A stretch of DNA of 63,502 bases, counting the filler, from Atractiella rhizophila (Eukaryota), in NCBI GenBank assembly GCA_021432655.1. It is 3 parts of 3 records of this genome, joined end to end, with 100 filler letters (N's around TTAATTAATTAA, not from the genome) between each part and the next. Parts side by side here need not be neighbours in the genome. Positions count along the whole stretch, not along the records: positions 1 to 24,964 come from MU271782.1; 2 more parts are not named here. One strand, 5' to 3'. The translations under genes were made by a program, and so were the position numbers. This document shows, piece by piece, positions 6,358 to 50,007 of the stretch (position 1 is the first letter of the stretch; each line of letters begins with the position of its first letter). The notes under the pieces are model-generated. The model searched no databases. It was not told the origin of the DNA and worked only from the letters and a program-made list of their open reading frames with translations.

Positions 6358-6483
6358 TGTGAGGATCTAAGGCTAGGAGTAGTTGGTGGTCAATAATGAG
6401 CACCAACACTCCTAGGCAAAACTAAACTATGTAGTGATGAGTCATAAGAGGCAGATGACCAAAACAACACGCTACAACTAACA
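6358..6483 (-). mobile_element. Solo LTR, family A (126 bp)
   Basis: Close match to 3154-3288, with TSD GTATC (6353-6357 and 6484-6488). Confidence 0.93.
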
Positions 6484-6701
6484 GTATCTGGCAGCACAGG
6501 AGCGTAGAGAGTATAATTCCAGCCGTGGCATCTTCGAAAAGCGAAAGTGAGTGCAGCCTGAGTCTGCATACTCCCCCTCGGACAAACAGTTCTACAACTA
6601 TTATACTTAAGTACCAGGAAGTATGAACCCTTTGGACGATGAGACCTGTACATCTGTAGGAGAGCTGAATTGGCGGAATTGTAGTGTGAAGGAGAAATTG
6701 G

Positions 6702-6986
6702 GTGAGAAATGGCTGGATGAAATCATTGAGCAGTGTCATCAGGATTTTTGGGTACTTGGGATTCATCTGTCTGAGGAGCAGATGGAAGGAAAAGTGGATT
6801 GAGATTAAAGAGCTGGTAAACAACTACTTAGGCCTTGGAAGCAGCTTCACAGCAGCGGAGAGAGATTTCTTCATTGATCAGCAATGTAGATTTCTCATCG
6901 GTGGATCAGATGTACAATGTTATGAGCTTTACATTGGGGAGCATGTGATGAAGGTGGAGAGGGAAGAAAGGCAAAGAAGGTTGTAG
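6702..6986 (+). pseudogene. Degenerate hAT transposase C-terminal dimerisation domain relic
   Basis: KWIEIKELVNNYLGLGSSFTAAERDFF resembles the hAT motif (P.L..LA..YL.IP.SS...ER.FS). The surrounding frames are closed. Confidence 0.5.
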
Positions 6987-7872
6987 AAGGCAGGAAATTA
7001 AAGGGTCTGATAGGTGGGTGTTCTAGAAATCTGAGACCTAATATGACATAGGATAGATTAAGCATTATTTGTTGTAATTCATTCATGTTGATTAAGACAC
7101 AATCAAATGTCTAAAGTATCAAATTATCGAAACATCCACCGTTGTATGCTGTTTTGTTTCCCTTTAGACATTATCCTCATCCCTTGTCCACCCTCCTCCC
7201 AGCACCTCCAACGTGATGCAACGGTGTATATATTGTTACAAATTGCCTCATATCTCATGAGGCACACATTGGAAAGCAAATGGCATTGCTTTGTTGTTTA
7301 ACTTGCTTCCTTATTATGAGTTTTTGCTGTTCAGAGCCAAACAAGATATAAGATATAGATATGTAGGATCAACCCTCTGACATTTGTTGATCAAAATCAA
7401 GTGGTAAGGCTGCACACCAACCATAATGCCATTCCGACCTTGCTGTGTGCCATTGAAGAAAGACTATTCCTTGCAGCTTCATTGCATTCTTTTTTTGATA
7501 TGGTGACTAACAATCTCATTCTGGTGAAAGGAGGCGACAAATTAGTGTAGCAGACTGAGACACAGAGTTGATATTGGTGAGGGCTGACTCTTTACAGTAT
7601 AATCACTACTGCTTCCGATCACAGGGTCCGTATTTTCAAGTTGTAGGGGACTCAGCTCAATCACATGACTTATAACTGCCCGAAGGTAGGTACAACTTCT
7701 CTTCCGAGTTCAACTTGAGTCAAGGTGGAGCTGCAGATGTTAGAGTTTAGAATTATTGGACCCAACGGCCTGTCCGGAGCAGCGTCGGAGATAAAGCCGA
7801 CTTTTATTTGCTTCCACTCAAGAGACGCTGCGGATGCTGTGCAGGCGTCTCTTTGAAGAAATAAGTACATTT

Positions 7873-7982
7873 TGTTAGTTGTAGTGTGTTGTGTTGGTCA
7901 TCTCTTATGACTCTTATGAGTCATCATTATGTCTGTAGTTTAGTTCTGTTGGTGCTCATTATTGACCCCCAACTACTCCTAG
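7873..7982 (+). mobile_element. Truncated family A LTR, opposite orientation
   Basis: tgttagttgtagtgtg..gtgctcattattgacccccaactactcctag is the reverse complement of LTR A lacking its last ~15 nt. Confidence 0.8.
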
Positions 7983-8540
7983 GTATGTCTCTCTAGACTT
8001 CTCTAATGTCTGACTTAGGACACTGACACTTGACATTAGTAGCTGTAGGTAAAAGCGGCTCTGGAAATTGTTGATGCCACTGTGAATACACAGTATTGGG
8101 GCAAGGTGCTGTAATGTTGCCAAGCCTCCCCTTGTTTCTCACAATAATCTTTCCAATGCACATGAGATCTGTGGCCTTCGGTATGAGATACCATTTTGCT
8201 GAAATTGTAGAGGCATAGTATTCACATTGTGAGCTTTCACTGGGTATTATTCATTGAACAGAGTCCACACTTGTTCCTGTGCCATTCCTTGCAGGTTTGT
8301 ATGTAAAAAGCTTCTCCTTACCAGAAAAAAGATATCCATCCAAATCAGACTTATTATAAAGCTGTCAGCACAAGGTGACCAGGTACCTTAACTGGAGCAA
8401 ACTGGCTCTGGCAACCTTATTAATGGACATGTCTGAATACTCTCAACTGAGGTGGGGATAGAACAACATGACCTTCATTAACACATCTTCTCCTCCAAGA
8501 GAAAGTAATTACATAAAACTGTTCGCAGTTTTGAATTAGG

Positions 8541-10470
8541 TCATGTGATGACTTGTGATATCGATCGTATGCCGTCGAAAACAGAGGTGCCGTTGATGGG
8601 GATATATTGTCTTGTGATCAACTTGATGGCTTCCTGAGCTGCCAGTCCACCCAACAAAGCCGCTATTTGAGGAAGCTCACAATGTTCGCTCCGGCAGCTA
8701 AAACGTGATCAGTCTCGAACACAACAGTCAGCAATCCTACATTTCTGATATGAACTCATCGGTGGAGGTCTGCTCCAAGTGCAACAACTTGATAGAAAGA
8801 GCCTTTAGCTCTGCCTTATCCTCCTCGACGACGGAGCTGGGGTATCTTCCTCTGGCAACATTGAAATGATTGACGACTCGAAAGGCAGCGTATAAGCCAG
8901 AAAGGTCATCGGAAGCTTAATTCGTTTGAGAAAAGGAACCGGAGAGGCATAAAGGACTTACTGATCGACTTGAGACTTTGCTCTTCATGAGTCAGACTGT
9001 CCGTTCGAAGGACAAAAAGAAACCGTGAGTGCTTTACGAAGGTCCGGGAGGACGTCAACGTCGACAGAAGCGTCCACTCCAGTGGACCTGGAAACGCGCT
9101 CAAAGTGCTTGCGAAAGCTTTGAAATTCAATCTCGGATTGATCCCTATAAACCTTCTGAAGATCGACAAAGACTTTTGTTTCGGCCTTCATATCTGGAAC
9201 GGAGCCATGCAATGGCAACCTCCCACCACCACCGTCGTCTGCAACGGGAGAACGAACAAAATCGCGCAGGGCACGAAGCATGGTCCAGAATAGCGTCGAC
9301 TGTCTCACTTTCAGCGTTGCGCTTAAAGGGCACACACTGTGGCGTACCTGTTTTGTCAGATTCTCACACTTTTCGTCCTGGAACAATTGTTCAATGTTGC
9401 TTGGTACCTTGTTGAGTTGTTAGTAGTTTGGTGATCATCAGGCAGATCTTGCCTGAGTGGGGGTGCAAGCTTTGAAGATAGCCTTTACAGCTTCATCAAA
9501 GTTCTCTTCGTCGTTGCCACGCTTCTGCTTCAGGATTGATGCTTTGAGCTCGTTTCGTTCCTTGAAATCCTTTGGTAGTTCGCCATTGTGCTGTTTTTTC
9601 TTTGAGCGTCAGACGTATAAAAAAATGTCAAACGCACGGAGCTTTTCCATCGTTCCAGTTCATTTACAAGGATGGCAACATATGGGATATGGGCATGCTC
9701 CATGCTGTCCATAGACTGGGAACTATAGGCTTTGCAGAAGTCAATGAGAGAGGGAAATGGTGAATCCAATCGGAGGTCCTCATAACTATCGGGATGCGTC
9801 TCAATGACTATGTGGAGTACTTGAGCATAAATTTGGGGAATGAAGAGATCTCACAGCATAACTCTCGAGCCTGGACGCGCAAAGCGGAATAAAACCCATG
9901 CGATTGAAGGACGACTAAAGGAACATCCAGATTCCAGCAAATATCCGCCAATTTCAAGGCAAACTTATGGTCGTCATCGACCAGAATAACCAGGCTAAAG
10001 GAACTGAGGAAGGATTCATCTGTCACCGTTGATAGCTCCTGCACAGTGAGAGATTGGCGGGTCACGCTCAGACAGCGTTATTCGCGGCTCACCTGACAAA
10101 CTGCCTTGCTTCTAACACTCGGATTTAACTCAGATATAAGTCGCGCACTTCCTCAGCGCGAGGTCTGCCTAAGCTTTCTTTCGACAAGAAAAAATTGGAT
10201 CCAATGTCGGATTCTTGGACGATGTTGGGATCAATCACCGTGAAGCTTCCCACACCTGTTCATGGATGTCACAGATAGTAAGAAGGAAGATATTAAATGC
10301 ATAGAATGGTGGTCACCTGGGAGTACTAAGTTTTTCAATGTGGATGCAGCGGCGGCTGTCGCGTTGATAACAAGAATATCAGCGTTTTCGAGAGCTGATT
10401 GACCACTCGCCGCCCATAATCGAAGCTGGCGATCATATTTCTGTCCATGAAGATCAGGTCTTGACGACAT
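8541..10470 (-). pseudogene. ULA1: NEDD8-activating enzyme E1 regulatory subunit, copy 1 (frameshifted as assembled; probably an artefactual duplicate)
   Basis: Same gene as 15966-17891 but with exonic indels near 10147 (1-nt loss) and 9045-9048 (1-nt gain). Confidence 0.7.
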
Positions 10471-10837
10471 CGTGGACAATATGACTTGTAATGAAGGCAA
10501 ACGCATGATTACGTAAACAGTCATTCACGCTGAGCCAGGGTTCAAGCACCCTGGCCATGAGCATTAATCATGTTAAAATATTCATGGAGAAAGGGTTTTC
10601 GTTTCGCAAAGGTTGCTCAAGAAGGTATAATCACTCTGCCTACTACATACAGTAACGCTAATGGATATTGCGACATGTTTTAACAGTGAGAAGACAAGAA
10701 CAAAAAACGAAGCTGGCGGTTGCAGGGCAGTATGCTACGAGAAACAAGTATTAGTGTACCACGGTCAATGGTTTGTTGAGGGATAAAGAATCACCGTATT
10801 AAGACGATTTCATATTTATGGTCAACATCATCCCCAC

Positions 10838-11511
10838 TTATCTTGACCGTCTTTGTAATGAACCAACGTGTAGTCCACCTGCACCGTTCTGTGAGCAAGA
10901 GTTCTTCAAGTATTGTGACCTGACCTCATTCAATTCAGCGTATAAATCTGTGAGAGAGTCCAGGCTTGTTAAGCGGAACGCATCATCTTTTTGATAGTCT
11001 TCCGATTGATTTTCGAGGTACTCTATCGCTGTGTGAAAAGCCGAGAATGTTTTGCCTAAGTAACGGATCAATTGTGGTGGTAAGTTGGGAAGTGGGTCGC
11101 AAGCGAGAGCCCCAGAAAGTAGCGTCTTGGACATGGAGGGTTTCCATTCTACCGACTTCATGTGATACTCCTTGGCGAGTAGAACAGTGAGAAGACGGGT
11201 GATATCCGATTGTTCAGTTTCGGAAAGACATGACCAAGCAACCTTAAAAAGTGCGATCCAGACTTCATGAGAAGTCGCCTCATCTGCGTGGAGCAATCGA
11301 CGAGCTGATGTAATGACCTCCCCCATGCGGTACGAAGCCAGGGTTTCCAGGAATTCGGAGTTGGATCCCTCAGTGCGGCAAAACAATTGGCCGTCGTCGT
11401 CGATAGCTCCCAGTAACAAGTCGGTCGCTTGCCTCAACCAATTCGTGTCCGCCAACGGTTCCCAATTCTGCACGCCAACAATGTACTGCAATCTGGGGAA
11501 CAGGGATCGGG
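10838..11511 (-). other. TRA1: Duplicate of the TRA1 3' end, cut by the gap
   Basis: Matches 18262-18936. Confidence 0.85.
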
Positions 11512-11536
11512 NNNNNNNNNNNNNNNNNNNNNNNNN
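11512..11536. other. Assembly gap (25 N)
   Basis: Run of N between the two 7.4-kb copies. Confidence 1.
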
Positions 11537-14500
11537 CCACCTCTGTTTTGTTTGCTTCACTTCGGAGTTTTAGCCCCCTAGGGGGCAGTTTAGGCGGTCA
11601 TCATCTTTGACCACCAATCTCTGTCCCCTAGATATGTGTTTCCCTATCAATATCATCATCTTTGGCCACCAATCTCTGTCCCCTAGGTATGTGTTTCCCT
11701 ATCAATATCATCATCTTTGACCACCAATCTCTGTCCCCTAGGTATGTGTTTCCCTATCAATATCATCATCTTTGACCACCAACACTTGTCCTCTAGCTCC
11801 ATCCAGCCTCAGATTCCTTCAATCAGGACAGTGTCGCTTGAAGGATCCAGCAGAGGTGGTTGAAAGTGAGTTGCTTGGGGTGTGTTGCCACTGACAGCCT
11901 ACCAGAGGGGGCAAGCTGTCCGAGGGACGGTGAGGAGATGCTGAAATCCGGAGTCGAGGGATTTGGAGGAGACCTAAATGAGTGACTATTATGCTTTCCG
12001 AGTGTTGGCATTGTATGGAAGTCAGGAGTACTGATTGAAGGTGAGTGTGGCTGAAGACAGCAGCACTGTTGTATCAGAGAGAGCATTGTCAAAAAGGAGT
12101 GTTGAAGTGTGTTGGGTACGAAATTGCTTCCAGCTCAAAGTTACACAACCACTTACTCCCCCTTTTATCTCTTTTCTATTTCTACTCCAATACACTCACT
12201 GTTATATTTCTGATTTCTCAGCATTTTGAGCTCTTCAGTTATCTAAACCGTTTAATATTTTATATATCATTTAATAACTTCAACCTCTCTACTCCCCAGT
12301 TATAATGCCCTTCATAACTCCTGACTTTAGCATTGAATGGTAGCATGAATTAGGTTTCCTTCCATGAACTGACTAATGTCCCCTCCTCATACGACAGCCC
12401 AATCGCTCAGTTTATGATCCTGTTCCTAATACGAAGCGTTCTGAGCTCCTCCTCAAGTCTACAGTCCTCTCTCATGATCCTAAACCGAATCCTCCTCCTC
12501 CTTCCTCCCAAGCGGCCATTCTTGTGCCAAAGACATGGTCAGAACTAAAAGGAATCAAGAAAAAAACAGCTCTCCTTTTAATCCTACTCGAGATCATGGC
12601 AGGAGACGCCATCCCCCAGGCTTTCGTAAAGAAGACAAAGAAGGTTGGGGAGTTCCATGACTATATTGCCTTACAGTCAGCTTCAAAAGGATCCTTATAC
12701 AAGGTACTAGGAACTGAGAGGAATAGACGCTGGATGGAGCTAGTTGGTGGTCAAAGATGATAGGATTGATGAGGAAACACATACCTAGGGGACAGGAGTT
12801 GGTGGTCAAAGATGATGACCACCAAGACTGCCCCCTACGGAGAAAAACTACGAAGTGAGTAAACACAGCAAAGGTGGCTGACCACACTAAGACAACACCA
12901 TGAAATTTAACATCTAATCCAACAGGAACGAGGAACCTCCATCATTGCCAATGCCATCATACGAGGAACTGATGGGCTGTGACGACGCTCACTTGAAAGA
13001 TTTCATTGTCAAGGTGCATCTATCATCTCTGTGTCAATGCTTTTCAAAGATTCCAAGGAGAAAGTCTTTTGCCAAAGAGTGGAACCAAGGAGCAACGCTT
13101 AAATCGACTTGTCACCTTCTTAGAGCTCCAGCTGTCACTAAACAGTGAGGGGAGAGAACATGTTTGTCCTCCCTCTGCACATCCTATATAGTAACACTCA
13201 AACTGTTGTCACCAAACAAGCGTACTTGCATTGACTGGGATGCCCATAGCTTAGCTGGATGGAGCTTGCAGAATGGGAGGAAGAGGGCTCAGCTGCTGTT
13301 TTCCCTGACTCATTGAATCAACTGAACAACACTCATTTTATAATCAAGGTCTGTCTTTTATATTCTTCAGTTCAGACTAGTAAGTTAACAAATCATTTAC
13401 TCGAGATGAGGGGCTGGTGACTCATCATGGGCCGGTCCAAATCTGTCGTCCTCAGATCCAGCTAACACTCTTGCCCCAATCCTTTCCGCCAGTCTCCCCA
13501 GTTCAAGGGTAATATCTCCTCCAATATTGTCACAATGTCCGACTACAAATGAAGAATCTCTTCCCCATCACATGGTCATTCCAGTGACAAGTTTGGTCTA
13601 GAATCAGCCTTCTCGCCCTATATCATACACTGCCACATCCACTTCTCCCTCCTTCCCTCCTTCTCCTCCCAGATTCCGCTTGAACGAACCGGGACCTCTC
13701 TGAATGCCTCCTGGTGGCACTCTACGGAATCAATTAGCTCATGGCGGAGTGGAGCCGTGGAGAAGTGGTATCTGTGAGGATCTAAGGCTAGGAGTAGTTG
13801 GTGGTCAATAATGAGCACCAACACTCCTAGGCAAAACTAAACTATGTAGTGATGAGTCATAAGAGGCAGATGACCAAAACAACACGCTACAACTAACAGT
13901 ATCTGGCAGCACAGGAGCGTAGAGAGTATAATTCCAGCCGTGGCATCTTCGAAAAGCGAAAGTGAGTGCAGCCTGAGTCTGCATACTCCCCCTCGGACAA
14001 ACAGTTCTACAACTATTATACTTAAGTACCAGGAAGTATGAACCCTTTGGACGATGAGACCTGTACATCTGTAGGAGAGCTGAATTGGCGGAATTGTAGT
14101 GTGAAGGAGAAATTGGGTGAGAAATGGCTGGATGAAATCATTGAGCAGTGTCATCAGGATTTTTGGGTACTTGGGATTCATCTGTCTGAGGAGCAGATGG
14201 AAGGAAAAGTGGATTGAGATTAAAGAGCAGGTAAACAACTACTTAGGCCTTGGAAGCAGCTTCACAGCAGCGGAGAGAGATTTCTTCATTGATCAGCAAT
14301 GTAGATTTCTCATTGGCGAATCAGATGTACATTGTTATGAGGTTACATTGGGGAGCATGTGATGAAGGTGGAGAGGGAAGAAAGGCAAAGAAGGTTGTAG
14401 AAGGCAGAAAATTAAAGGGTCTGATAGGTGGGTGTTCTAGAAATCTGAGACCTAATATGACATAGGATAGATTAAGCATTATTTGTTGTAATTCATTCAT

Positions 14501-17500
14501 GTTGATTAAGACACAATCAAATGTCTAAAGTATCAAATTATCGAAACATCCACCGTTGTATGCTGTTTTGTTTCCCTTTAGACGTTATCCTCATCCCTTT
14601 GTCCACCCTCTTCCCAGCACCTCCAACATGATGCAACGGTGTATATATTGTTACAAATTGCCTCATATCTCATGAGGCACACATTGGAAAGCAAATAGCA
14701 TTGCTTTGTTGTTTAACTTGCTTCCTTATTATGAGTTTTTGCTGTTCAGAGCCAAACAAGATATAAGATATAGATATGTAGGATCAACCCTCTAACATTT
14801 GTTGATCAAAATCAAGTGGTAAGGCTGCACACCAACCATAATGCCATTCCGACCTTGCTGTGTGCCATTGAAGAAAGACTATTCCTTGCAGCTTCATTGC
14901 ATTCTTTTTTTGATATGGTGACTAACAATCTCATTCTGGTGAAAGGAGGCGACAAATTAGTGTAGCAGACTGAGACACAGAGTTGATATTGGTGAGGGCT
15001 GACTCTTTACAGTATAATCACTACTGCTTCCGATCACAGGGTCCGCATTTTCAAGTTGTAGGGGACTCAGCTCAATCACATGACTTATAACTGCCCGAAG
15101 GTAGGTACAACTTCTCTTCCGAGTTCAGCATGAGTCAAGGTGGAGCTGCAGATGTTAGAGTTTAGGATTATTGGACCCAACGGCCCGTCCGGAGCGGGCG
15201 TCAGAGATAAAGCTGACTTCAATTATTTGCTTCCGCTCAAGAGACGCTGCGGTTGCTGTGCAGGTGTCTCTTTGAAGAAATAAGTACATTTTGTTAGTTG
15301 TAGTGTGTTGTGTTGGTCATCTCTTATGACTCTTATGAGTCATCACTATGTCTGTAGTTTAGTTCTGCTTAGGAGTGTTGGTGCTCATTATTGACCTCCA
15401 ACTACTCCTAGGTTTGTCTCTCTAGACTTCTCTAATGTCTGACTTAGGACACTGACACTTGACATTAGTAGCTGTAGGTAAAAGCGGCTCTGGAAATTGT
15501 CGGTACCACTGTGAATACACAGTATTGGGGCAAGGTGCTGTAATGTTGCCAAGCCTCCCCTTGTTTCTCGCAATCTTTCCAATGCACATGAGATCTGTGG
15601 CCTTCGGTATGAGATACCATTCTGCTGAAATTATAGAGGCATAGTGTTCACATTGTGAGCTTTCACTGGGCATCATTCATCGAACAGAGTCCACACTGTT
15701 CCTGTGCCATTCCTCGCAGGTTTGTATGTAAAAAGCTTCTCCTTACCAGAAAAAAGATATCCATCCAGATCAGACTTATTATAAAGCTGTCAGCACAGGG
15801 TGACCAGGTACCTTAACTAGAGCAAACTAGCTCTAGCAACCTTATTAATAGACATGTCTGAATACTCTCAACTGAGGTGGGGATAGAACAACATGACCTT
15901 CATTAACACATCTTCTCCTCCAAGAGAAAGTAATTACATAAAACTGTTCGCAGTTTTGAATTAGGTCATGTGATGACTTGTGATATCGATCGTATGCCGT
16001 CGAAAACAGAGGTGCCGTTGATGGGGATATATTGTCTTGTGATCAACTTGATGGCTTCCTGAGCTGCCAGTCCACCCAACAAAGCCGCTATTTGAGGAAG
16101 CTCACAATGTTCGCTCCGGCAGCTAAAACGTGATCAGTCTCGAACACAACAGTCAGCAATCCTACATTTCTGATATGAACTCATCGGTGGAGGTCTGCTC
16201 CAAGTGCAACAACTTGATAGAAAGAGCCTTTAGCTCTGCCTTATCCTCCTCGACGACGGAGCTGGGGTATCTTCCTCTGGCAACATTGAAATCATTGACG
16301 ACTCGAAAGGCAGCGTATAAACCAGAAAGGTCATCGGAAGCTTAATTCGTTTGAGAAAAAGAACCGGAGAGGCATAAAGGACTTACTGATCGACTTGAGA
16401 CTTTGCTCTTCATGAGTCAGACTGTCCGTTCGAAGGACAAAAAGAAACCGTGAGTGCTTTACGAAGGTCCGGAGGACGTCAACGTCGACAGAAGCGTCCA
16501 CTCCAGTGGACCTGGAAACGCGCTCAAAGTGCTTGCGAAAGCTTTGAAATTCAATCTCGGATTGATCCCTATAAACCTTCTGAAGATCGACAAAGACTTT
16601 CGTTTCGGCCTTCATATCTGGAACGGAGCCATGCAATGGCAACCTCCCACCACCACCGTCGTCTGCAACGGGAGAACGAACAAAATCGCGCAGGGCACGA
16701 AGCATGGTCCAGAATAGCGTCGACTGTCTCACTTTCAGCGTTGCGCTTAAAGGGCACACTGTGGCGTACCTGTTTTGTCAGATTCTCACACTTTTCGTCC
16801 TGGAACAATTGTTCAATGTTGCTTGGTACCTTGTTGAGTTGTTAGTAGTTTGGTGATCATCAGGCAGATCTTGCCTGAGTGGGGGTGCAAGCTTTGAAGA
16901 TAGCCTTTACAGCTTCATCAAAGTTCTCTTCGTCGTTGCCACGCTTCTGCTTCAGGATTGATGCTTTGAGCTCGTTTCGTTCCTTGAAATCCTTTGGTAG
17001 TTCGCCATTGTGCTGTTTTTCTTTGAGCGTCAGACGTATAAAAAAATGTCAAACGCACGGAGCTTCTCCATCGTTCCAGTTCATTTACAAGGATGGCAAC
17101 ATATGGGATATGGGCATGCTCCATGCTGTCCATAGACTGGGAACCATAGGCTTTGCAGAAGTCAATGAGAGAGGGAAATGGTGAATCCAATCGGAGGTCC
17201 TCATAACTATCGGGATGCGTCTCAATGACTATGTGGAGTACTTGAGCATAAATTTGGGGAATGAAGAGATCTCACAGCATAACTCTCGAGCCTGGACGCG
17301 CAAAGCGGAATAAAACCCATGCGATTGAAGGACGACTAAAGGAACATCCAGATTCCAGCAAATATCCGCCAATTTCAAGGCAAACTTATGGTCGTCATCG
17401 ACCAGAATAACCAGGCTAAAGGAACTGAGGAAGGATTCATCTGTCACCGTTGATAGCTCCTGCACAGTGAGAGATTGGCGGGTCACGCTCAGACAGCGTT

Positions 17501-18936
17501 ATTCGCGGCTCACCTGACAAACTGCCTTGCTTCTAACACTCGGATTCAACTCAGATATAAGTCGCGCAACTTCCTCAGCGCGAGGTCTGCCTAAGCTTTC
17601 TTTCGACAAGAAAAAATTGGATCCAATGTCGGATTCATGGACGATGTTGGGATCAATCACCGTGAAGCTTCCCACACCTGTTCATGGATGTCACAGATAG
17701 TAAGAAGGAAGTTATTAATGCATAGAATGGTGGTCACCTGGGAGTACTAAGTTTTTCAATGTGGATGCAGCGGCGGCTGTCGCGTTGATAACAAGAATAT
17801 CAGCGTTTTCGAGAGCTGATTGACCACTCGCCGCCCATAATCGAAGCTGGCGATCATATTTCTGTCCATGAAGATCAGGTCTTGACGACATCGTGGACAA
17901 TATGACTTGTAATGAACGCAAACGCATGATTACGTAAACAGTCATTCACGCTGAGCCAGGGTTCAAGCACCCTGGCCATGAGCAATAATCATGTTAAAAT
18001 ATTCATGGAGAAAGGGTTTTCGTTTCGCAAAGGTTGCTCAAGAAGGTATAATCACTCTGCCTACTACATACAGTAACGCTAATGGATATTGCGACATGTT
18101 TTAACAGTGAGAAGACAAGAACAAAAAAACGAAGCTGGCGGTTGCAGGGCAGTATGCTACGAGAAACAAGTATTAGTGTACCACGGTCAATGGTGTTTGT
18201 TGAGGGATAAAGAATCACCGTATTAAGACGATTTCATATTTATGGTCAACATCATCCCCCCTTATCTTGACCGTCTTTGTAATGACCCCAACGTGTAGTC
18301 CACCTGCACCGTTCGGTGAGCAAGAGTTCTTCAAGTATTGTGACCTGACCTCATTCAATTCAGCGTATAAATCTGTGAGAGAGTCCAGGCTTGTTAAGCG
18401 GAACGCATCATCTTTTTGATAGTCTTCCGATTGATTTTCGAGGTACTCTATCGCTGTGTGAAAAGCCGAGAATGTTTTGCCTAAGTAACGGATCAATTGT
18501 GGTGGTAAGTTGGGAAGTGGGTCGCAAGCGAGAGCCCCAGAAAGTAGCGTCTTGGACATGGAGGGTTTCCATTCTACCGACTTCATGTGATACTCCTTGG
18601 CGAGTAGAACAGTGAGAAGACGGGTGATATCCGATTGTTCAGTTTCGGAAAGACATGACCAAGCAACCTTAAAAAGTGCGATCCAGACTTCATGAGAAGT
18701 CGCCTCATCTGCGTGGAGCAATCGACGAGCTGATGTAATGACCTCCCCCATGCGGTACGAAGCCAGGGTTTCCAGGAATTCGGAGTTGGATCCCGCAGTG
18801 CGGCAAAACAATTGGCCGTCGTCGTCGATAGCTCCCAGTAACAAGTCGGTCGCTTGCCTCAACCAATTCGTGTCCGCCAACGGTTCCCAATTCTGCACGC
18901 CAACAATGTACTGCAATCTGGGGAACAGGGATCGGG
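11537..18936 (+). repeat. 7.4-kb direct repeat, copy 2. Includes partial LTR B 11537-11821, solo LTR B 12715-12924, solo LTR A 13773-13898, hAT relic ~14117-14400 and truncated LTR A 15292-15411
   Basis: Direct comparison with 4122-11511. The same TSDs (GGAAC, GTATC) are present. Confidence 0.97.
15966..17891 (-). CDS. ULA1: NEDD8-activating enzyme E1 regulatory subunit (Ula1/NAE1/APP-BP1), multi-exon, apparently intact
   Basis: [100 protein letters not shown]. Confidence 0.95.
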
Positions 18937-21900
18937 AAACGCTTCGGTCGAAGACTTCAATGAAGCTGTTACGAATGCTGTGTTCGCGGAAGCGGCATCC
19001 AACGAGAAAGGCTGGTTCCAACCTCACCGTCAGCTCAGTCCTGTAGAACTGTGGGGACTGATAAATTTCAAGAATGAGTGTCAAGTAATCCTGGATGAGA
19101 GACTTGTCCTCTCGTTTTTCGAGAACGCACATTCGAGCGATGACTCCGGCTTTCTCCTTTAATGTGGGATACTGAACAGTCGTGTTAAAAATCCAATTGC
19201 GCACTAGCTGGAGGAGATAATGGCAAAGCTCTGAGCTTGGGCTCCGTTCAGTCAATTGTACGATGACAGTAAAAATATGTTTGCGATGTTCACCCAACAT
19301 GTTTACCCTGGAGCTGAGCAAATCTATTGCGGAGATCAAGACCTTGAGGTGAAGGTGGCCATGTAGGTGTGGTGCTTGTGGCGGCCTGATGTGATCTCGC
19401 ACCAACCGCATTAGCGCGTTTGTGGCCAGAAGGGGAAGGAATTGTTCCACCTCGTCCGGGAAAGACCGACACCAAGCCTGGAGGAGAACCATTGTCGCGG
19501 GAAGATTGTCTGGACTTTTCAAACCATCTAGAATTGTTGTTTGTGCCCAATTTAGAAAGATTTGAACATCCTGGCGTCGTGCTTCCTCATTTTTGGGTAA
19601 GACCGCAAAGAGCCGATCAACGACTACTTTCTGGGCAGCATGGAGACTGAAGTCCGGAGTCTGCAGGATTTTCTCAACCATCTTCTGGTGGGTAGAGAGG
19701 GTTGACAGGACCCACGAGTCCGACTTGCACGAAATAACAACATTGAGAACATCTGCAGAAGCGCTCAGAATGGGCAAAGTTTGGTGATTAGGAGCTGGGT
19801 AGGTGTGATAAATCTTTTGAAAGATGTTAAGCTTGATTGTGATGTCGCACCATAAACTCTCCCCCATGAGTTCTTTAAGCAGGCGTAGAGCACGAGGAAC
19901 CATCTGTTTCCGGGACAACTGATCTGGCGCAGAGGCGGCGAATCTAATCAAGGTATTGACGATCTGCTCTTTCAGGTTCGTAGGGACTGAGTACAGATAA
20001 GCTGCATTCCCGGCGACTGTCTGAATATCCTGTGTGACCGAGTTTTCGCGCAGAAAATCTACCCGTTTCTTCTCCCACTGTAGGATGACTTCTACCAGAT
20101 CAAGAGCTAGGGACCTATTTTCGAAATTCGTCGTCGACGGCATGAGAAACAGCTTGCTGATGGCCAAAGCGACGTGAGTCACCAATAGATCGCGGTAAGG
20201 GAATAGCATGTCATGGAAGCGTTTGATAACTTCGAGGATATTCAACGCTTGAGATATATTGCCAATCTCCTCGACCAACTTCCTGCGAACGACTCTTACC
20301 CAATAGGGGTGAGGTGACGTGCCTTCAACATTTCCCAGACGCCGCGGTAAAGCTGGGAAGAGGTTGTCTTGAGCCTTTTGCACTAGCGCCCTGTTTTCAG
20401 GTTGATACGGCAGCAAGAGCGCTTGCAGTATCTGATTGACAATTTTACTAGGTGACTCAAATGCGTTGAGGAATCGGGTGATGAGGACATGGGACACTTG
20501 TTTCACAGTAACATCGTGAACCTTGATGTTGACCCAACCGAACTTGATCGTGTCCTTCCTCATCTCGCCCATATATCGATGATAGTGCTCAATGAGTAGG
20601 GTCGTGCTATGCAAAAGCTCGATGCGTAGACCTTCATCTGGCAAATCGGTTTCACCATTCCGATCCACCAAGAAAGGCTTCCACACTTTACTGTGAAAGC
20701 TGTGGATTAGCGAGACGTCGACCAGATTTTCAACACCTTGTCCTCGTGCGCATGAAACCAATAAGATAGGATTCACCAGATAGCGAAGTATGGCGCATTT
20801 GTGGGAATCGGGAACGTTGTCATTCCAGAAAAGTCTGTCAAGAAAGCGGTCTAAGACTTTCCTCTTCATCGTGACATCTGAAGACCGTGCAACCTGATCC
20901 GTCAAAAAGCGGACCAGGTATGAGAAATCGTAGGGGAGATGCATGGTAAAAACTCGGGCCAAGTGAAAGAGGACATCAATGTGATGGGGGTCTGTATGGA
21001 TGCGAAGGAGATCTGAGTCGTAGACGTTGCCTGACTGAAAATACTTCATGAAAAGACTGATAGCTACAATGTCTTCTCTAAGTTGCTGCGACTGCGCGAC
21101 TCCTGTAGCGGCTAGTCGTTCCTGTCTGAAAGGAGAGACCCAACGGTTGACAACGCATTGATATGCATCAGGTGAGTTGACAAAGAAACGAACATCTGCC
21201 TCCACCAAAACCTCCAACATCCAATACGCGTGTAGAACAACGTCATCTATTCCGTTGATGAGGCGAGGCAACAGATTGGGCAGATTGTCCACGACGTGTT
21301 GGCGGAGTTCCCCCGAGCATTTGCATTGCAATACATTGCGAAAAGTCAAAGCGTGCCTCTCTTTATCCATGCGTTCAACGAAAAAGTTGGTTGCTTCCAT
21401 AGGATATCGGTTAAGGTATTTGGCCAACGGCTCTGTCAAGGGGCTGGCAGTGGTTTTTTTCAGGACTTTCTCCACTTCGATGGTCAAATGAAGCAAATCC
21501 AACATAAAACAACCAGCTCCAGGATGAGGAAGTAAATGAAAGACGTTAATGATGCCGGCCATAACCTTCACGCTACTGTTCTCGTTGCTGGGATTCAGTG
21601 CAGATTCCAGTACGGTGTTCACATCAGCGAGCTGACGATAATGGTCCAGCAATTTCTGCCCAATCTCTACCTTGAAATAGTTGTTCAAAAGCTCTAACAG
21701 CCGGGCGAGACCATGTAAACTGTTAACGTCGAGCCGTTTGTAATCGGATAAGTTGGTGAGAACGGGGCGTAAGGCGTTTTGTAGAAGATCTTTGGGCAGT
21801 TTTCCAGATTGAAGCAATAGCTCTTTCAAACTAGCATAACAAACGTCGACTACAGCGGATGATCGAGAATATAGGAGCTTGAAGTAGGCACTGAGAATTC

Positions 21901-24900
21901 TCATCCTCGTCGCGACTTGCTTGGCTGCAAAAAAATCTGGTATGGACATGACGGCAGTTAGGAGTTTCACACAGACGATTCGGAGTTGGGTCAGCGAAGC
22001 GGCTGTCTTTTGAAACGGCGACGACTTCCCGATGAGAGCGCTGTCATCAGCATCCGCAATACCCAACGCTTCTGTAACCACTCTGTGTAGCTCATCCGTG
22101 GGTTCAATGAGCGGGGGACGTAAATTTATGGCGTAGGTGATAGCATCGATGTGTCCAATCTGCATCGGGAAAGCGAGTGCTCTGAGAGGCTTCTTGTAAA
22201 TCGGGTGAAGAAGTCTTTCCTTTACAGGTAGCAGGAGTTCTGTGACGGTACCCCCTGTCCCTTCGGCAAGGATCTCAAAGGCTTTCTGTGTCGTGGCCCT
22301 GACAGCAGCGATCTGACTGGATAACTCGACAATGAGTAGGCTGGCAAGAAAATTCTGCTTTTTGGTGTCTACGTCGCTGCTGGATCTGGGGAGATTGCAC
22401 ATAGAGATAATCTTGAGCAGGACATCCGCTACATCGTCGACGTTTCTTGGTGGATCGGCCGGCATATCCTTTAGAGCGAAGACCAAGGCACGAACAAAAA
22501 CCAGTTCGTGGTCAATGTACCAATCCTTGCCAAGGCTAAGTTTGTTTACAAGAACGGAAATCCCAGCCGCGCCAGCCGTTTTTCGAGACCACGCTTGATT
22601 GTAGCAGAGTGAACTGAGACCTTGGGCGAATTGATGCAAAATTGCTGTAGTCCAGTCAGCAGGTCGCTTTCCGTCCGCTCCGCCGCCTTTTACAAGAACC
22701 TCTTCAACCAGACGTTGGAGATGAGCACATCCGCGCTTCAAATTGTCAGCTTCAGCACAAGCCAAGCCTTCAATCACTGCCTCCACGATGCTCATCGACA
22801 GTGCATGAAACCCATGCATAAGAGCACCGGTTGTGGACCATTTTGGAGTGTCCGCCAGCTGGAGTTCAATCTCGAATATATGCATCGAGAGATTGATGAT
22901 GTAGTCGGACGCCTCGTGCTCCGTCTCTGGAATAAGCGACGCCTCAAAGAGACCTTTAACGACTTTCCCGAATACCGTAAGCGGTTGAGACATTTGCATG
23001 TGATCCTTATAGAAACGGTCACAAATGTTACAAGGCTTTGTGGAACACTCACCTTATTCAGGAACAGAACTGCAATCCTTTTGAGAAACTGTAAAGCATG
23101 CAGACGGAAATAAGGGTCCGGCTTAGAGATGACATCGGTGGCAAGTTCAACCAGTGCCGTAATCTGCAAGGTCCGTTCTTTTCCTTCGAATTTAACAGGT
23201 AGTGTTGCTTCTTCATCAGGTTCTTTGTATTCGAGCGCCGGTGGGCCAAGGATCTTTCTATTTCTGCCTCCTATCTTGCCTAGAATCCGAAATGTCGTGA
23301 TGGAGTGGTTGGGGTAGGCAGTAGGATTTGGTTTCAGGAGTTTCCAGAGAGAAGACATAATATCATGCATAACTGGAGCGATAAGCGGACCGAGGAACTC
23401 TTGCGTCAAATTGTCAACGCAGAGGTCGAGGGTGCGCAAGCCCTGCGTGATGAGTTCCGGAGGACCCTTGAGCGAATGAACCAGAGGTTTCATCAGCCAA
23501 GAAAGATAAGGCAAAAGGACGTTCAGTCGAACTGGTACGGTGAGGGCAAGTTCAGCAAATAGGTCACTTTTCGGCTTCTCCGAAGTCAGCAGTAGGTTGT
23601 TAAGAGTCTCTAGAAGCGTTTGCAGCATGGGCAAAACCTCTCGATAGAGGCTTTCGAACTTGCCCCCACCAATACTTCGAAAAAGTGAGCGTAAAAGCAT
23701 GTAATATGGTGTCGAATCTGAAGAGCGACTTGCACATTTGAGAGATGTCATGATGATTTCGTTGAGGTAAGGCTGCAGGACTGCTTCGTTCATTTCGGGG
23801 AAGACCGTGACCGACATGAAAGACATTTTGTAAAATTTGATGAGGAGATCAACCTCATCTCTAGGTCTCGACGCCAACCCTTCAAGATTCTTTAAGAGAT
23901 GGCGATAGATGATACCTAGTAGAATCGGAGAGACCTGAAGGTTTGACAGTAGATGTTGTGGAATCGAAACGAGCTCTGGATGGACAATCATCTGGGAGAC
24001 CAAGAAATCCATTTGACTTTCAAGAACCTCCTGCATTACCAGTTTCTCGCAAGTGAAGAGGATGACGGATGAAGCTTCAATCAGCTCCCTCATTTTCCTG
24101 CCTTGATCTTCTCGTGGATCCAAGACGGGTAGAAACCGGACAATAGCTTCAAAAAATCTTCCCACTAGCCGACCGTCCGGTGTAGGTAGGGAAAGACTTT
24201 TCTGCGTCATGGCAACTGTCTTGTAACCCAACACGACATTCTTGAAGAGAAAGCGATAATCGTAAAGTACTGACGGGAGACAATTTAGAAAAGGTAGCAC
24301 AGGATGTGGTTGATGCTTACATTTCTGCAAATCGGTTACGGTGTCAACCATCACAGACATACCTCCAACTGGTTTAGCCCTCTCAATATCGATGTCATCC
24401 AATTCGCGTCCCTGTAACTGTGACTTTTCACGGGGTTTTGGATCGTCATGGGAGGTCGAAACTTCAACCATATCGACATCTTCCTCCTGGACTGGCTTAT
24501 CTACATCCATCTCTTCCTGTGGGAACGCTCTCATCTCTCCGACAACGTCCTTGAGGTTCAGCGGATCACCTGTTTCATTTGAGTGAACGAAATCTGGAAC
24601 TGCCACATCTTGATTGAGGTCGCCACTATTGTTTCCCTCTTTCGACCTCCCCTTCCCCCAGGAATTCATCTGATCTTTGACCAAGGACATCCCAACCAGC
24701 TTCTCCACAAAACTCTCTGAAATCCTATCCAACATTTGAGCTACTTCAATTTGCTTTTCTTTGAGTCGTTCTAGGTCAGCGACTTCTGTCGATGGAGGAG
24801 CTTGGTCCTGCTTGGGAGGGATAAGGTGACTTTGAATGGAGTCCATAATATTCATGAGAAGCTTGCAACACATGGTTTGAATTGTAGGCTGAAGCGTGGG

Positions 24901-24964
24901 GTCGTGCAATGTTATTGTATAGAGGTGACAGACCTTTCTGAGCTGTTCCAGAGAAAGTTTGCTG
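18262..24964 (-). CDS. TRA1: Tra1/TRRAP (SAGA/NuA4 PIKK-family scaffold), HEAT-solenoid portion only. 5' end lost at the linker; ends at the HEAT/FAT boundary
   Basis: LLRSLFRSIGGGKFESLYRE, LTVPVRLNVLLPYLSWLMKPLV, QGLRTLDLCVDNLT, KPLRALAFPMQIGHIDAITY, KLPKDLLQNALRPVL, YFKVEIGQKLLDH, YRTELTVRLEPAFLVG, QNWEPLADTNWL. Introns near 24272-24322, 23007-23053 and 18304-18349. The last exon is VDYTLGSLQRRSR-TAA. Confidence 0.93.
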
Positions 24965-25064
24965 NNNNNNNNNNNNNNNNNNNNNNNNNNNNNNNNNNNN
25001 NNNNNNNNTTAATTAATTAANNNNNNNNNNNNNNNNNNNNNNNNNNNNNNNNNNNNNNNNNNNN
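24965..25064. other. Artificial 100-nt scaffold linker (44N + TTAATTAATTAA + 44N)
   Basis: The 12-mer has stops in all six frames. An identical construct lies at 49908-50007. Confidence 0.97.
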
Positions 25065-27666
25065 GGCTCATCAAGATGGAGCAAACCGTCGCTGATCCCG
25101 AAGCGCGTGGAGTCGTCAACAAGGCTATCAAGACTCTGCAAGGTGTAGGAAAGGTTTCCGGTGATGGATCCGACCTCCCTCCCCCGAAGGTAACGAAGGC
25201 GGAGGACTCGCTTCCCAAAGTCAATGCTGCTCTCAAGAAGCACGCCGCTTCCGCAGCCACGGATGCCAATGCTAGTCTGATCAGGTACATCGCTCAAATC
25301 GTCGCTAACCTTGTCAACGCAAGGAACCTCGAGCTCGTGGAGTGGAACAGCGCTTTGACCGCTTATGTTAACCTGATGGCTCCCGAAGCTGCCTCCCATG
25401 CAACAGTTAAGGAGGTTTTGGAGAAGTCTGCTGGAGCAGATGACGAAATTTTAGCTTTTGATGACGAAGAGGAGGGTGAAGACCTTTGCAACTGCACTTT
25501 CTCTCTGGCCTAGTGCGTCTCTCCTTGCTTCTTTTAGTTTCGAGTCTGATAGTTGCTGGGCGAACAGTGGTGCCAAAATTTTGTTGAACACCGCGACGAT
25601 GAGATTGAAGAGAGGACACCGATACGGTCTCGTTGGCCGAAACGGTTCCGGGAAATCCACTTTGATGAGGTCCATCCAACAAGGACAAGTCAATGGTTTC
25701 CCCAGCCCTGACGAAGTCAGGACTTTTTACGTTGAACATGACATTGGTATGCTTTTGCTGCATCTATAGTGAGATCACGTGTTGATTTTGTTCCAGATGG
25801 ATCTGAGGAAGATACTACTATTCTTCAATTCATCCTTTCCGATAAACGTCTTGGCGCGAGCGAAGAAGAGGCGAAGGCTTCTCTTGCCTCTGTCGGCTTC
25901 ACCGCTGAGCGCCAAGAGCAATCGATTGGCAGTCTTTCTGGAGGTTGGAAGATGAAGTTGGCTTTGGCTCGTGCTATGCTGTTCAAGGCCGACATCCTCT
26001 TGCTCGATGAACCTACCAACCACTTGGACGTCCTCAACGTCAAGTGGCTCGAAGACTACCTCCGATCTCTTACTACTTGCACTTCCATTATCGTCTCTCA
26101 CGACTCGTCCTTCCTTAACAACGTTGTTTCCGACATCCTCTACCTTAACAGGTTCAAGCTCAAGCGATACCCCGGAAATCTCGATCAATTCGTCAAATAT
26201 GTCCCGGAGGCGAAGGCTTTCTATGAGCTCAACCCTCAAGAGGACTACAACTTCAGGATCCCCAACCCACCTCTTCTCGATGGTGTCAAGACCAAGGAGA
26301 AGTCGATTATGAAGATGAGGAACGTTGGATTCCAGTACCCCGTTTCCAAGGTTCAACAGCTTTACGATATCACCCTTCAAGTTTCTCTCTCCTCCCGTGT
26401 CGCCGTTCTTGGTCCCAATGGTGCCGGAAAGTCTACTCTCGTCAAGCTCCTTGTTGGAGAATTGGAGCCCAACAAGGGTGGTGAGGTTTGGAAGCACCCT
26501 GCTCTCGTCGTCGGCTATGTGTCCCAGCATGCCTGTGAGTTTTGTCACCTTACCCAGTTTTTAACCGTCTGATGTTGGCGTAGTCCACCACATCGACTCT
26601 TGCCTTGATAAGACCCCTCTAGAATACCTCCTTCAACGCTTCGCCACTGGTGAGGACGGTGAAGAGCTCACCAAGACCACTCGAGTCATCACCAAGGAGG
26701 ACGAGGAGAAGATGAAAGCTGGTGCTCTTATCACCATCGAGGGACAGAAGAGAACGATTGATGAGATCATTTCTCGACGCAAGCTCAAGCAATCCTACGA
26801 GTACGAAGTGTCTTTCAAGGGACTGTCCTCATCCGAGAACATTTACCTGCCGCGTGATGATCTTATCAAGCGAGGATTTGAGAAGGCTGTCGCTGCTCTC
26901 GATACCAGGGAGGCTCAGAAACTTGGTCTCACTCGCCCTCTTGTCCGAAAGGAGGTCGAGAAGCACTATGCCGATTTCGGTTTGGAGGCTGAATTCGTTT
27001 CGCATAACACCATGAGGGGTCTCTCTGGTGGTCAGAAGGTGAAGGTCGTCCTTGGTGCCGCTACTTGGCGACGGTATGTTTTGTTTCATTTCACCGCTTT
27101 CAATATACTCATTGTATTCGCATCGTCTTAGACCTCACGTTGTCATCCTCGACGAGCCCACCAATTATCTCGATCGCGAGTCGTTGGCCGCTCTCATTGA
27201 TGGACTGAAGAACTTCGAGGGAGGAGTCCTCATTATCACTCACTCCAAGGAGTTCTCAGAGTCGCTCTGTAACGAAGTATGGGCTATGAAGGACGGTTAC
27301 CTTACTCCTTCTGGTCACAACTGGTTCGTTTATCCCTTCCACAAATATTTTCTGAACTAACATAAATGCGACAGGGTTGAGGGTCAAGGTTCCGGACCTA
27401 GGATCGACCAGAAGGATGGTCCTCAAGAGGATACTTTCGATGCCATGGGTAACAAGGTCGAGAACAAGGCATCGAAGAAGTTGACTTCAAAGGAGGAGAG
27501 GAAGAAGAAGAAGGACAGGATGGCCCGCCGCAAGCGTGGAGAGGAAGTCTTCACAGACGAGGAGATTAAGCTACCAGATTTGCCCTTTCCATTCTTTTCG
27601 CTTTTTTGTTTGTGTTTAGGACTGCTTTTTGTAATCACTTCTGGGCATCTACTGGTACTCCAATAG
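25065..27666 (+). CDS. YEF3: Fungal translation elongation factor 3 (ABC-F ATPase), 5'-truncated, multi-exon; the true stop is probably 27567-27569
   Basis: [72 protein letters not shown], chromodomain insert [37 protein letters not shown], Lys/Arg-rich tail. Confidence 0.96.
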
Positions 27667-30679: not shown

Positions 30680-31050
30680 TTGCCTTCAGGCGTCTTGGTT
30701 GACTATTCCGAAATTAGTTCCAAAAGATTCAAATTTCACTTGATTGCTAACCTCAAACGCATTATTCTTCCTTCCCACCACTCAACACCTAATATCTCTT
30801 TTTACAAATCTCACGTTCATCCTTCAGTCAACAACCCTTAGTCTGCAGCTTGGTGTTTGGGAATCCGACTCTCATGTTTCTTATCACAATACCGCTGATG
30901 ATATGCTCAAGATGTCGAATCTACCTCACTCTGTGCTTCAGCTATGATCTTCATCATATCGGCTTTCCCACATTCCTGCCTCTCGAGAAATGGAGTAAAC
31001 ATGGCCTGGTCTACGTCTGCAAAAGGAAATGATGATTTATTAGCCTTCAG
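30680..31050 (+). pseudogene. Possible decayed non-LTR retrotransposon (zf-RVT-like) 3' fragment
   Basis: WLTIPKLVPKDSNFT*LLTSNALFFLPTTQHL...GVWESDSHV weakly recalls the zf-RVT pattern (W..pk..F.W...Lpt...C..C..E...H), but the cysteines are missing. Confidence 0.25.
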
Positions 31051-33225
31051 AGAGGTTAGTTATTCGTTGGGAACATACATCGCCAGCATCAGACTGCGGT
31101 GGATATCCGAAGAGAGATCGTTAGGATTCGTCACAACCTTTTGGTGGACTTGAAGAGGAGAATTTCGATAGAGTAGAGAATCAGATTGAAGCGGAAGCAG
31201 AAAACTTGAGAAGACTGTGGAGTCAAGAGAGGCAAATCCCAGCCAAATCGTGAAGACGTTCGTAGCTAAGACTAATAAATTGAAACAACACCAAAGAAGC
31301 TCGTCGAAGGCGGGTCACAGAGACAAGTGAGACAGAACTCAGACATAGGTATAAACAATTGAAGGCTACACGTGCGCACGAAGTTCTTCCCTCCTTCCTT
31401 GTTTTATCGATTGATTGACTGACTGAATACGAACTGGGAGTCGCGATACAGAGATGGCTTTTTTCATTTTTTGTTACGTATTTTTATCGAGGGAGGGAAG
31501 CTTGAGGTATAGCGTCAAGGAGCCTTTCGATGTCTTCCTTAATTTGATAACACCTATAACCTTATCAGCCATCTTGCGATTTCGGCACATCTAAAGAAAC
31601 CTTTACGTTATTTCCTCCTGAAAGGCGATTTGGAACACAGTCCTATCATGGTAAATGAGAAGTTTATAAAGATCTCCCACGGGCTTGACTATTCGATTGA
31701 GCATGACCTCGACTCCGAAGTCGCGATAGATTTCCATTCCCGAGATGTTGGCGACAATCATCTACTTAAAACATCAAAAAGGTGACAAACTGAAGACGAG
31801 ACGAACATGGCGCCACGTCCCCTGCTCTTTGAAACGAATCCAATTGCCGTATGCGACTCCAGACACGACGTTGTGAGTCCCTCGATCTCCGCGCCGCAGG
31901 AACCCGATAAAGCTTGAGGCGGTCTCATGAAGCGTACAAGCGGCATTGTCGACAGGAGGTATAGTTCGCGCATTTTGATCGATGAGGCATTTGAATTCTT
32001 CCTTCCCACCACTCAACACCTAATATCTCTTTTTACAAATCTCACGTTCATCCTTCAGTCAACAACCCTTAGTCTGCAGCTTGGTGTTTGGGAATCCGAC
32101 TCTCATGTTTCTTATCACAATACCGCTGATGATATGCTCAAGATGTCGAATCTACCTCACTCTGTGCTTCAGCTATGATCTTCATCATATCGGCTTTCCC
32201 ACATTCCTGCCTCTCGAGAAATGGAGTAAACATGGCCTGGTCTACGTCTGCAAAAGGAAATGATGATTTATTAGCCTTCAGAGAGGTTAGTTATTCGTTG
32301 GGAACATACATCGCCAGCATCAGACTGCGGTGGATATCCGAAGAGAGATCGTTAGGATTCGTCACAACCTTTTGGTGGACTTGAAGAGGAGAATTTCGAT
32401 AGAGTAGAGAATCAGATTGAAGCGGAAGCAGAAAACTTGAGAAGACTGTGGAGTCAAGAGAGGCAAATCCCAGCCAAATCGTGAAGACGTTCGTAGCTAA
32501 GACTAATAAATTGAAACAACACCAAAGAAGCTCGTCGAAGGCGGGTCACAGAGACAAGTGAGACAGAACTCAGACATAGGTATAAACAATTGAAGGCTAC
32601 ACGTGCGCACGAAGTTCTTCCCTCCTTCCTTGTTTTATCGATTGATTGACTGACTGAATACGAACTGGGAGTCGCGATACAGAGATGGCTTTTTTCATTT
32701 TTTGTTACGTATTTTTATCGAGGGAGGGAAGCTTGAGGTATAGCGTCAAGGAGCCTTTCGATGTCTTCCTTAATTTGATAACACCTATAACCTTATCAGC
32801 CATCTTGCGATTTCGGCACATCTAAAGAAACCTTTACGTTATTTCCTCCTGAAAGGCGATTTGGAACACAGTCCTATCATGGTAAATGAGAAGTTTATAA
32901 AGATCTCCCACGGGCTTGACTATTCGATTGAGCATGACCTCGACTCCGAAGTCGCGATAGATTTCCATTCCCGAGATGTTGGCGACAATCATCTACTTAA
33001 AACATCAAAAAGGTGACAAACTGAAGACGAGACGAACATGGCGCCACGTCCCCTGCTCTTTGAAACGAATCCAATTGCCGTATGCGACTCCAGACACGAC
33101 GTTGTGAGTCCCTCGATCTCCGCGCCGCAGGAACCCGATAAAGCTCGAGGCGGTCTCATGAAGCGTACAAGCGGCATTGTCGACAGGAGGCATAGTTCGC
33201 GCATTTTGATCGATGAGGCATTTGA
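30764..33225 (+). repeat. 1231-bp head-to-tail tandem duplication (30764-31994 and 31995-33225)
   Basis: Near-identical copies. I see only two differences, both C>T in copy 1 (aagcttgagg vs aagctcgagg; ggaggtatag vs ggaggcatag). Confidence 0.97.
31603..31994 (-). pseudogene. Duplicated 3' fragment (last two exons, partial) of orphan protein 2
   Basis: KCLIDQNARTIPPVDNAACTLHETASSFIGF..EQGTWRH plus the last exon, created by the 1231-bp duplication. Confidence 0.8.
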
Positions 33226-49907: not shown

Positions 49908-50007
49908 NNNNNNNNNNNNNNNNNNNNNNNNNNNNNNNNNNNNNNNNNNNNTTAATTAATTAANNNNNNNNNNNNNNNNNNNNNNNNNNNNNNNNNNNNN
50001 NNNNNNN
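49908..50007. other. Artificial 100-nt scaffold linker (44N + TTAATTAATTAA + 44N)
   Basis: Same construct as 24965-25064. Confidence 0.97.

Follow-up and report, generated by a model that had tools for sequence, protein, structure and literature searches.

An expressed TRA1 gene of Atractiella rhizophila that ends before the FAT-pseudokinase-FATC head

The stretch of DNA analysed here, called the window throughout, comprises 63,502 nt from the genome of Atractiella rhizophila (assembly GCA_021432655.1). Its first scaffold (MU271782.1, positions 1-24964) carries a minus-strand TRA1 gene whose coding frame and mRNA both end before the C-terminal head of the protein. Tra1/TRRAP is the activator-binding scaffold shared by SAGA and NuA4/TIP60, and its kinase is dead. 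A first-pass annotation of the window had described about 2200 open TRA1 codons, a 46-nt intron and a TAA at 18262, and this structure holds: joining four exons gives a frame of 2185 codons with no stops, from the scaffold end at 24964 to a TAA at 18262-18264. The 3’ coding end reads ..LDSLTDLYAELNE, followed by a GT..AG intron at 18304-18349 and then by VDYTLGSLQRRSR and the stop codon. The 5’ end is cut because the scaffold stops at 24964, and about 456 N-terminal residues lie beyond it. RNA evidence comes from assembled contigs of four public runs (X3, X4, X6 and X7) placed on 15500-24964; such contigs drop rare variants, and minor isoforms could escape. The parts of the gene are:

24321-24964, minus strand: TRA1 coding exon, its 5’ side cut by the scaffold end at 24964 (tblastn match from residue 457 of Mixia Tra1; joint 24269/24321 in spliced contigs)
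24270-24320, minus strand: TRA1 intron of 51 nt, GT..AG (joint in runs X3 and X4)
23053-24269, minus strand: TRA1 coding exon with Tra1_central and the start of Tra1_ring (Pfam)
23006-23052, minus strand: TRA1 intron of 47 nt, GT..AG (joint in X3)
18350-23005, minus strand: long TRA1 coding exon, from Tra1_ring to ..LYAELNE (Pfam Tra1_ring, E = 0; tblastn against Mixia)
18304-18349, minus strand: TRA1 intron of 46 nt, GT..AG (joint in X3, X4 and X6)
18262-18303, minus strand: last TRA1 coding piece, VDYTLGSLQRRSR plus TAA (18262-18264), a degenerate remnant of the E-D-x-F-Y-G-L-W-R-R-R motif (same end in public model P0321)
18266-18273, minus strand: donor-like CG|GTCAAG, where several relatives have an intron; used in no contig
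18069-18261, minus strand: TRA1 3’ untranslated region (3’UTR) with a spliced 62-nt intron at 18157-18218 (spliced contigs; 22 untemplated T at 18069 in one contig)

Pfam recognizes Tra1_central (PF20175, E = 1.7e-122) and Tra1_ring (PF20206, E = 0, 1421.9 bits, profile positions 134-1682 of 1682) in the chain. In tblastn, residues 457-2599 of the full-length Tra1 of Mixia osmundae (P0001, 3724 aa) match window positions 24960-18335, with 41.7% identity over 1658 columns, and a second match lies at 11509-10910. The Tra1-specific HEAT regions are present and colinear with those of canonical Tra1. No FAT domain (PF02259) follows them in the TRA1 chain, where tblastn gives no match past Mixia residue 2599-2605. 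Mixia residues 2591-3724 have no credible match anywhere in the window on either strand (tblastn, E up to 10), and none of the 17 window open reading frames (ORFs) scanned has a Pfam match to PI3_PI4_kinase; the earlier statement that FAT, PI3K-like and FATC sequences are missing downstream in the window is thereby confirmed. A coding remnant of FAT or FATC was sought in the 3’UTR and intergenic stretch, both visually in three frames and with tblastn (E up to 10), and none was found; an in-situ deletion preserving the original 3’ end is therefore not supported.

The RNA contigs list 13 splice joints, 11 of which excise introns of 43-62 nt bounded by GT..AG (read as CT..AC on the plus strand). 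The other two belong to the neighbouring gene ULA1, one being a GC..AG intron and the other a one-base-shifted copy of a ULA1 joint. Because of these joints, all four runs behave as RNA. In X3 a single contig of 6972 letters (depth 114.8, vs. 122.9-146.6 for the ULA1 contigs of the same run) spans 24964 to 18348 with three coding introns removed, and extends 260 letters past the scaffold end. Its first 193 letters consist of 22 T, then 18069-18156, then 18219-18301; the TRA1 message thus continues past the stop, loses a 62-nt intron in the 3’UTR and ends at 18069. That intron (18157-18218) begins 43 nt past the stop, and its joint is found in X3 and in two contigs of X4. Contigs of X4 and X6 also contain the 46-nt joint and continue past the stop. 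The window sequence beyond 18069 is not A-rich and the 22 T are absent from the genome; having no genomic template, they were taken as the poly(A) tail of a minus-strand message. TRA1 mRNA therefore seems to receive its poly(A) tail at 18069, a point 193 nt downstream of the stop and 178 nt before the ULA1 start codon, in the interval (near 18000-18250) where the first-pass annotation had proposed to look for a poly(A) site. As would be expected after gene fission, the N-terminal part has its own stop, 3’UTR and poly(A) site in the contigs. That annotation had named two outcomes that would overturn its proposal, and neither occurred: the message does not run on into FAT sequence, since the spliced contigs match the assembly past the stop, and a recent, unexpressed truncated duplicate is excluded by spliced contigs in four runs.

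The genomic end of TRA1 was assembled twice. It had been pointed out that the TRA1-ULA1 junction is present in two copies and away from a gap; it does stand in both, 6.4 kb from the gap, but the copies are the two sides of an unmerged overlap. The relevant features are:

11512-11536, no strand: scaffold gap of 25 N, separating two overlapping contig ends
4122-11511, no strand: copy A of 11537-18936, 98.7% alike; it includes ULA1, the junction and, at 10838-11511, the final 674 nt of TRA1
24965-25064 and 49908-50007, no strand: artificial linkers N44-TTAATTAATTAA-N44 with stops in six frames, joining three scaffolds (1-24964, 25065-49907 and 50008 to the end)

The stretches 4122-11511 and 11537-18936 are 98.7% alike over 7411 columns and flank the 25-N gap exactly. 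They represent a contig-end overlap of 7.4 kb that was left unmerged, not a tandem duplication, and are probably alleles, since most of the differences between them are substitutions, along with a few short indels. Because the linkers lie between separate scaffolds, neighbourhood across them is meaningless.

Public gene models carry the same end. KAH8915225.1 (P0321, 1561 aa, ‘hypothetical protein’, A. rhizophila) terminates identically in ..AELNEVDYTLGSLQRRSR; its start is placed at a Met within the long exon, it is unnamed, and the missing Tra1 head is not remarked upon. KAH8915222.1 (P0199, 150 aa) is exactly what copy A gives when spliced. The contig of both models is given as 24964 nt, the length of the first scaffold. 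Public annotation thus contains the truncated TRA1 end, though without name or comment. The truncated gene is a real feature of both genome and mRNA.

Comparison with the RNA contigs lists 27 differences in the TRA1 coding sequence (43 more, over the whole stretch, are outside this listing), of which 19 are synonymous and 8 non-synonymous. The synonymous share expected without constraint is 0.31, given the transition/transversion mix (p = 3e-5). In windows of 100 residues, the identity of TRA1 to Mixia, Rhodotorula and P0058 rises and falls with that of the three to one another, at a ratio of 0.64-1.05 over all windows and of 0.79-0.87 in the last 260 residues before the break, which indicates that the part abutting the head is still constrained. 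Judged from these patterns TRA1 is under purifying selection, as had been supposed from the intact frame. In a quick tree, TRA1 falls inside the Pucciniomycotina set (8 of 17 rows; SH-aLRT, the Shimodaira-Hasegawa-like likelihood ratio test, 99) and outside the rust pair. Its end branch is 0.9; the rusts have a stem of 0.85 plus end branches of 0.26-0.28, and Mixia has 0.49. On this sequence comparison, the branch length and conservation profile of TRA1 are those of an orthologue.

Canonical Tra1/TRRAP is a full chain (3744 aa in S. cerevisiae, 3724 aa in Mixia), whereas the Atractiella frame and mRNA end at the equivalent of Mixia residue 2605. The Mixia WRRR motif occupies residues 2602-2605, Tra1_ring ends at 2536 and the Pfam FAT domain starts at 2680, so that the break falls between the two domains. 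About 1120 residues are absent, comprising the rest of FAT, FRB, the PI3K-like domain and FATC. When the final 300 residues of the long exon are compared with solved structures, number 299 pairs with 2672 of Komagataella Tra1 (5oej_B), which places the end of the chain near 2684. The FAT region that contacts Spt20 in SAGA is given as Komagataella Tra1 2700-2753 in PMC6868236; the Atractiella chain stops about 15 residues short of it, and the region is absent from the chain. Tetratricopeptide repeats T1-T7 correspond to yeast Tra1 residues 2572-2830 in the cryo-electron microscopy description of PMC5576489. With T1 starting at 2572, the product has the Finger/Ring HEAT solenoid plus about 110 residues of FAT, and what is missing begins with the docking region. 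The earlier placement of the end at the HEAT/FAT boundary is therefore right by Pfam (between ring and FAT), but by the structural definition the end lies about 110 residues inside FAT.

Several relatives have introns at the position of the break. The P0058 frame runs into one after GLWHRR, and P0057 and P0187 stop there. Since these ORFs stop or enter an intron after W-R/H-R-R, an ancestral intron at the TRA1 break is likely, and the stop codon, which now lies two codons further on, gives the impression that the frame reads through into what remains of the old intron. The possible donor CG|GTCAAG that had been suggested just before the stop is present at 18273-18266. The TRA1 tail is EVDYTLGSLQRR, while five aligned relatives share E-x-D-x-x-[YW]-G-[LQ]-W-[RH]-R-[RK]; in the last 12 residues of TRA1, the conserved aromatic and W positions are lost. 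In copy A, a 1-nt deletion and a G>T change turn the tail into VDYTLVHYKDGQDKWG. None of the three runs with coverage there contains this variant, and the frameshift may thus be an assembly error. The degenerate tail and the copy-A frameshift suggest that the residual FAT motif is unconstrained.

The reading that we tentatively prefer, with a probability of about 0.4, is a Tra1 made from two genes and acting as two chains, after a rearrangement at the ancestral intron. A rearrangement with its breakpoint in or beside that intron would have cut TRA1; the frame would then have run into the old intron up to a stop, and a new 3’ end would have been taken on. The FAT-FRB-pseudokinase-FATC head would be encoded by a separate gene elsewhere in the genome, and the head chain would bind the HEAT chain non-covalently via the large ring-head interface. 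We favour this reading because the HEAT part next to the break is constrained as in full-length orthologues, and because a 3.5-kb gene could be hidden or broken in so fragmented an assembly. The nearest precedent, and a model for it, is another giant conserved basidiomycete protein: as reported in PMC4540427, the dynein heavy chain of Agaricomycetes comes from two genes, dhc1 and dhc2, that encode the N- and C-terminal parts separately. Dynein belongs to a different family and both of its genes are known, whereas in Atractiella only the N-terminal gene has been seen.

Several observations weigh against a two-gene Tra1. The poly(A) end was seen in one contig of one run. In yeasts, as reported in PMC6868236 and PMC5982823, entry of Tra1 into SAGA and NuA4 needs the head, FATC and TTT-assisted folding, so a split would have to keep all of these in trans. 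A search with the head (Mixia residues 2600-3724) against proteins of <2048 aa at E 1e-50, in a collection to which the A. rhizophila NCBI proteins belong, returned no Atractiella protein among the best 120 of 400 matches. Among the 120 listed, 34 lack Tra1_ring; eight of these keep the WRRR motif and 26, with internal starts (Mixia 2621-3033), resemble fragments of ORFs or contigs, with none of the 34 starting at Mixia 2606-2620. None of the 20 clusters examined for the 34 ring-less matches has an Atractiella member (one contains Rhodotorula mucilaginosa). An intact, annotated stand-alone head of about 1100 aa should fall within the listed matches; as none is listed, the head gene would have to be split by scaffold ends, unannotated, or fused in a protein of >2047 aa.

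Environmental sequences show no split either. Scanning metagenomes with the beginning of Mixia FAT (318 residues) yielded 80 fungal loci, and HEAT is directly joined to FAT in 75 of the 75 with upstream sequence. Another four are cut inside FAT by the contig end, and the last, L001, has a different upstream sequence. As no locus is >46% alike to the HEAT end of the window, the species is not among them. L001 (4011 nt, AT-rich) keeps ..DDYFYGLWRRR, with an unrelated protein-like ..GIPDSLRGVVW.. in frame 24 residues before WRRR, and is probably a chimeric contig.

A rather unlikely alternative is that the head was lost outright, and that a HEAT-only Tra1 either functions in the absence of FAT, pseudokinase and FATC or now serves another role, e.g., as an activator-binding platform. 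This would fit every database result, as there is no Atractiella head among the best 120 of 400 matches or in the 20 clusters, and no second Tra1. The degenerate last 12 residues and the frameshift of copy A, which make the FAT remnant seem unconstrained, would fit as well. However, the Spt20-contacting region and all the parts needed for incorporation in yeasts would be gone, yet HEAT is conserved up to the break. The absence of the head rests on the best 120 of 400 matches and on a fragmented assembly, and the frameshift, not seen in three covering runs, may be an assembly error.

It is improbable that the gene is a HEAT-only paralogue, i.e., a retained and expressed partial duplicate with its own function, with a full-length TRA1 elsewhere. 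Paralogous pairs have precedents in S. pombe Tra1/Tra2 and Arabidopsis TRA1A/TRA1B (PMC6868236, PMC8194025), a partial duplication ending in an intron would yield exactly such a structure, and the end branch of TRA1 (0.9) is longer than that of Mixia (0.49). However, a second Tra1-like HEAT protein of Atractiella was found neither among the 56 matches listed of 2822-5000 aa nor among the 7 listed of 886-2821 aa, nor among the 120 listed head matches. In a representative library, the best 150 of 657 matches likewise hold no second one: the sole close match is the 150-aa copy-A model, and the next have 51% and 45% identity, leaving no close relative with which to date the break. The gene itself is missing from the HEAT protein searches because this 150-aa entry represents its 90% cluster, which has only two members, both models of the same scaffold. 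No contig at least 90% alike to TRA1 leaves it for unlike sequence in the four runs, and the branch length and conservation profile fit an orthologue.

Joining at the RNA level is very improbable. A minor isoform, trans-spliced or cis-spliced over a very long range, would use GTCAAG and link the HEAT part to a distant head, with the short polyadenylated form as a by-product. The donor-like GTCAAG does sit at a conserved intron position, and assembled contigs could have dropped a rare variant. Trans-splicing at CG|GTCAAG, as the first-pass annotation had envisaged, found no support: none of the six loose ends listed in the four runs, and no joint, falls at 18266-18273 (18271 being the splice position), and contigs of three runs cross the site uninterrupted. 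The 12 introns seen at the locus all measure 43-62 nt, and the 18 kb downstream, which include a complete gene on the same strand, contain no FAT exon. mRNA trans-splicing is not known to occur in this fungal group, though no search aimed at it was made.

An assembly artefact or a dying pseudogene, which the fragmented assembly, its unmerged overlaps and the scaffold end cutting the 5’ part of TRA1 might have suggested, is largely refuted by the agreement past the stop of two assembled versions with spliced contigs from three further studies, and by an open frame of 2185 codons, splicing in the contigs of four runs and the synonymous excess.

In the literature searched, neither a Tra1 nor any other PIKK was reported as split or head-less. 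According to PMC6868236, the full PIKK architecture is retained in all Tra1 orthologues, and one reason proposed there for this layout is that the head is needed in chaperone-assisted folding and incorporation. The paralogues of S. pombe (Tra1/Tra2) and Arabidopsis (TRA1A/TRA1B) resemble the present case in that an organism may have more than one Tra1-type product; in PMC6868236 and PMC8194025 they are described with PIKK architecture, whereas the Atractiella chain is without a head and no second Tra1 is among the matches listed. A natural Tra1 that is expressed, under selection and stops 15 residues short of the SAGA-docking region is informative about the necessity of the head. If the head is a second gene, the halves can fold and assemble apart, providing a natural design for splitting a 430-kDa protein. 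If it was lost, SAGA and NuA4 would work with a HEAT-only Tra1, or without it, and the PIKK architecture would be dispensable in a free-living fungus; its assumed necessity would then be wrong for at least one lineage.

The gene downstream of TRA1 is complete:

15966-17891, minus strand: ULA1, complete coding sequence of 512 codons with 8 introns (model built from splice joints)

Its name is that of the first-pass annotation and denotes a putative NEDD8-activating enzyme E1 regulatory subunit-like protein. The distance of 370 nt between the TRA1 stop and the ULA1 ATG, on the same strand, was given correctly, but the ATG lies at 17891-17889 and not at 17892. The ULA1 intron at 16830-16874 is GC..AG, while the other 11 introns at the locus are GT..AG (43-62 nt). 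In X3, a second contig has a ULA1 variant at 16622 (depth 54.9 of 179.4). The two assembled versions of this region suggest about 1.3% heterozygosity and unmerged alleles in the assembly, and both contain a 55-nt tandem repeat of 3.4 copies (11598-11782 and 4183-4367).

Transposons had been said to follow ULA1. Transposon domains were found only at 1-2567, where minus-strand ORFs of a Copia-type retroelement (RVT_2, E = 7.6e-58; rve integrase core; SH3-like) run off the scaffold start; between ULA1 and the gap, none of five tested ORFs gave a Pfam match. By the start of the second scaffold, ABC_tran domains followed by a weak chromo-domain match lie at 25742-27131 (plus strand), presumably in a gene of the translation elongation factor 3 type. 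Two tandem duplications may be real repeats or assembly artefacts: one of 1231 nt x2 (30764-33225; 99.8%), and one of 417 nt x2 (33685-34517; 99%) inside a 604-codon ORF without Pfam match (33005-34819, minus strand). Elsewhere in the window are a protein kinase ORF at 36532-38427 (minus strand; Pkinase, E = 1.9e-40) and a ubiquitin carboxyl-terminal hydrolase (UCH) over two ORFs at 57535-60948 (plus strand).

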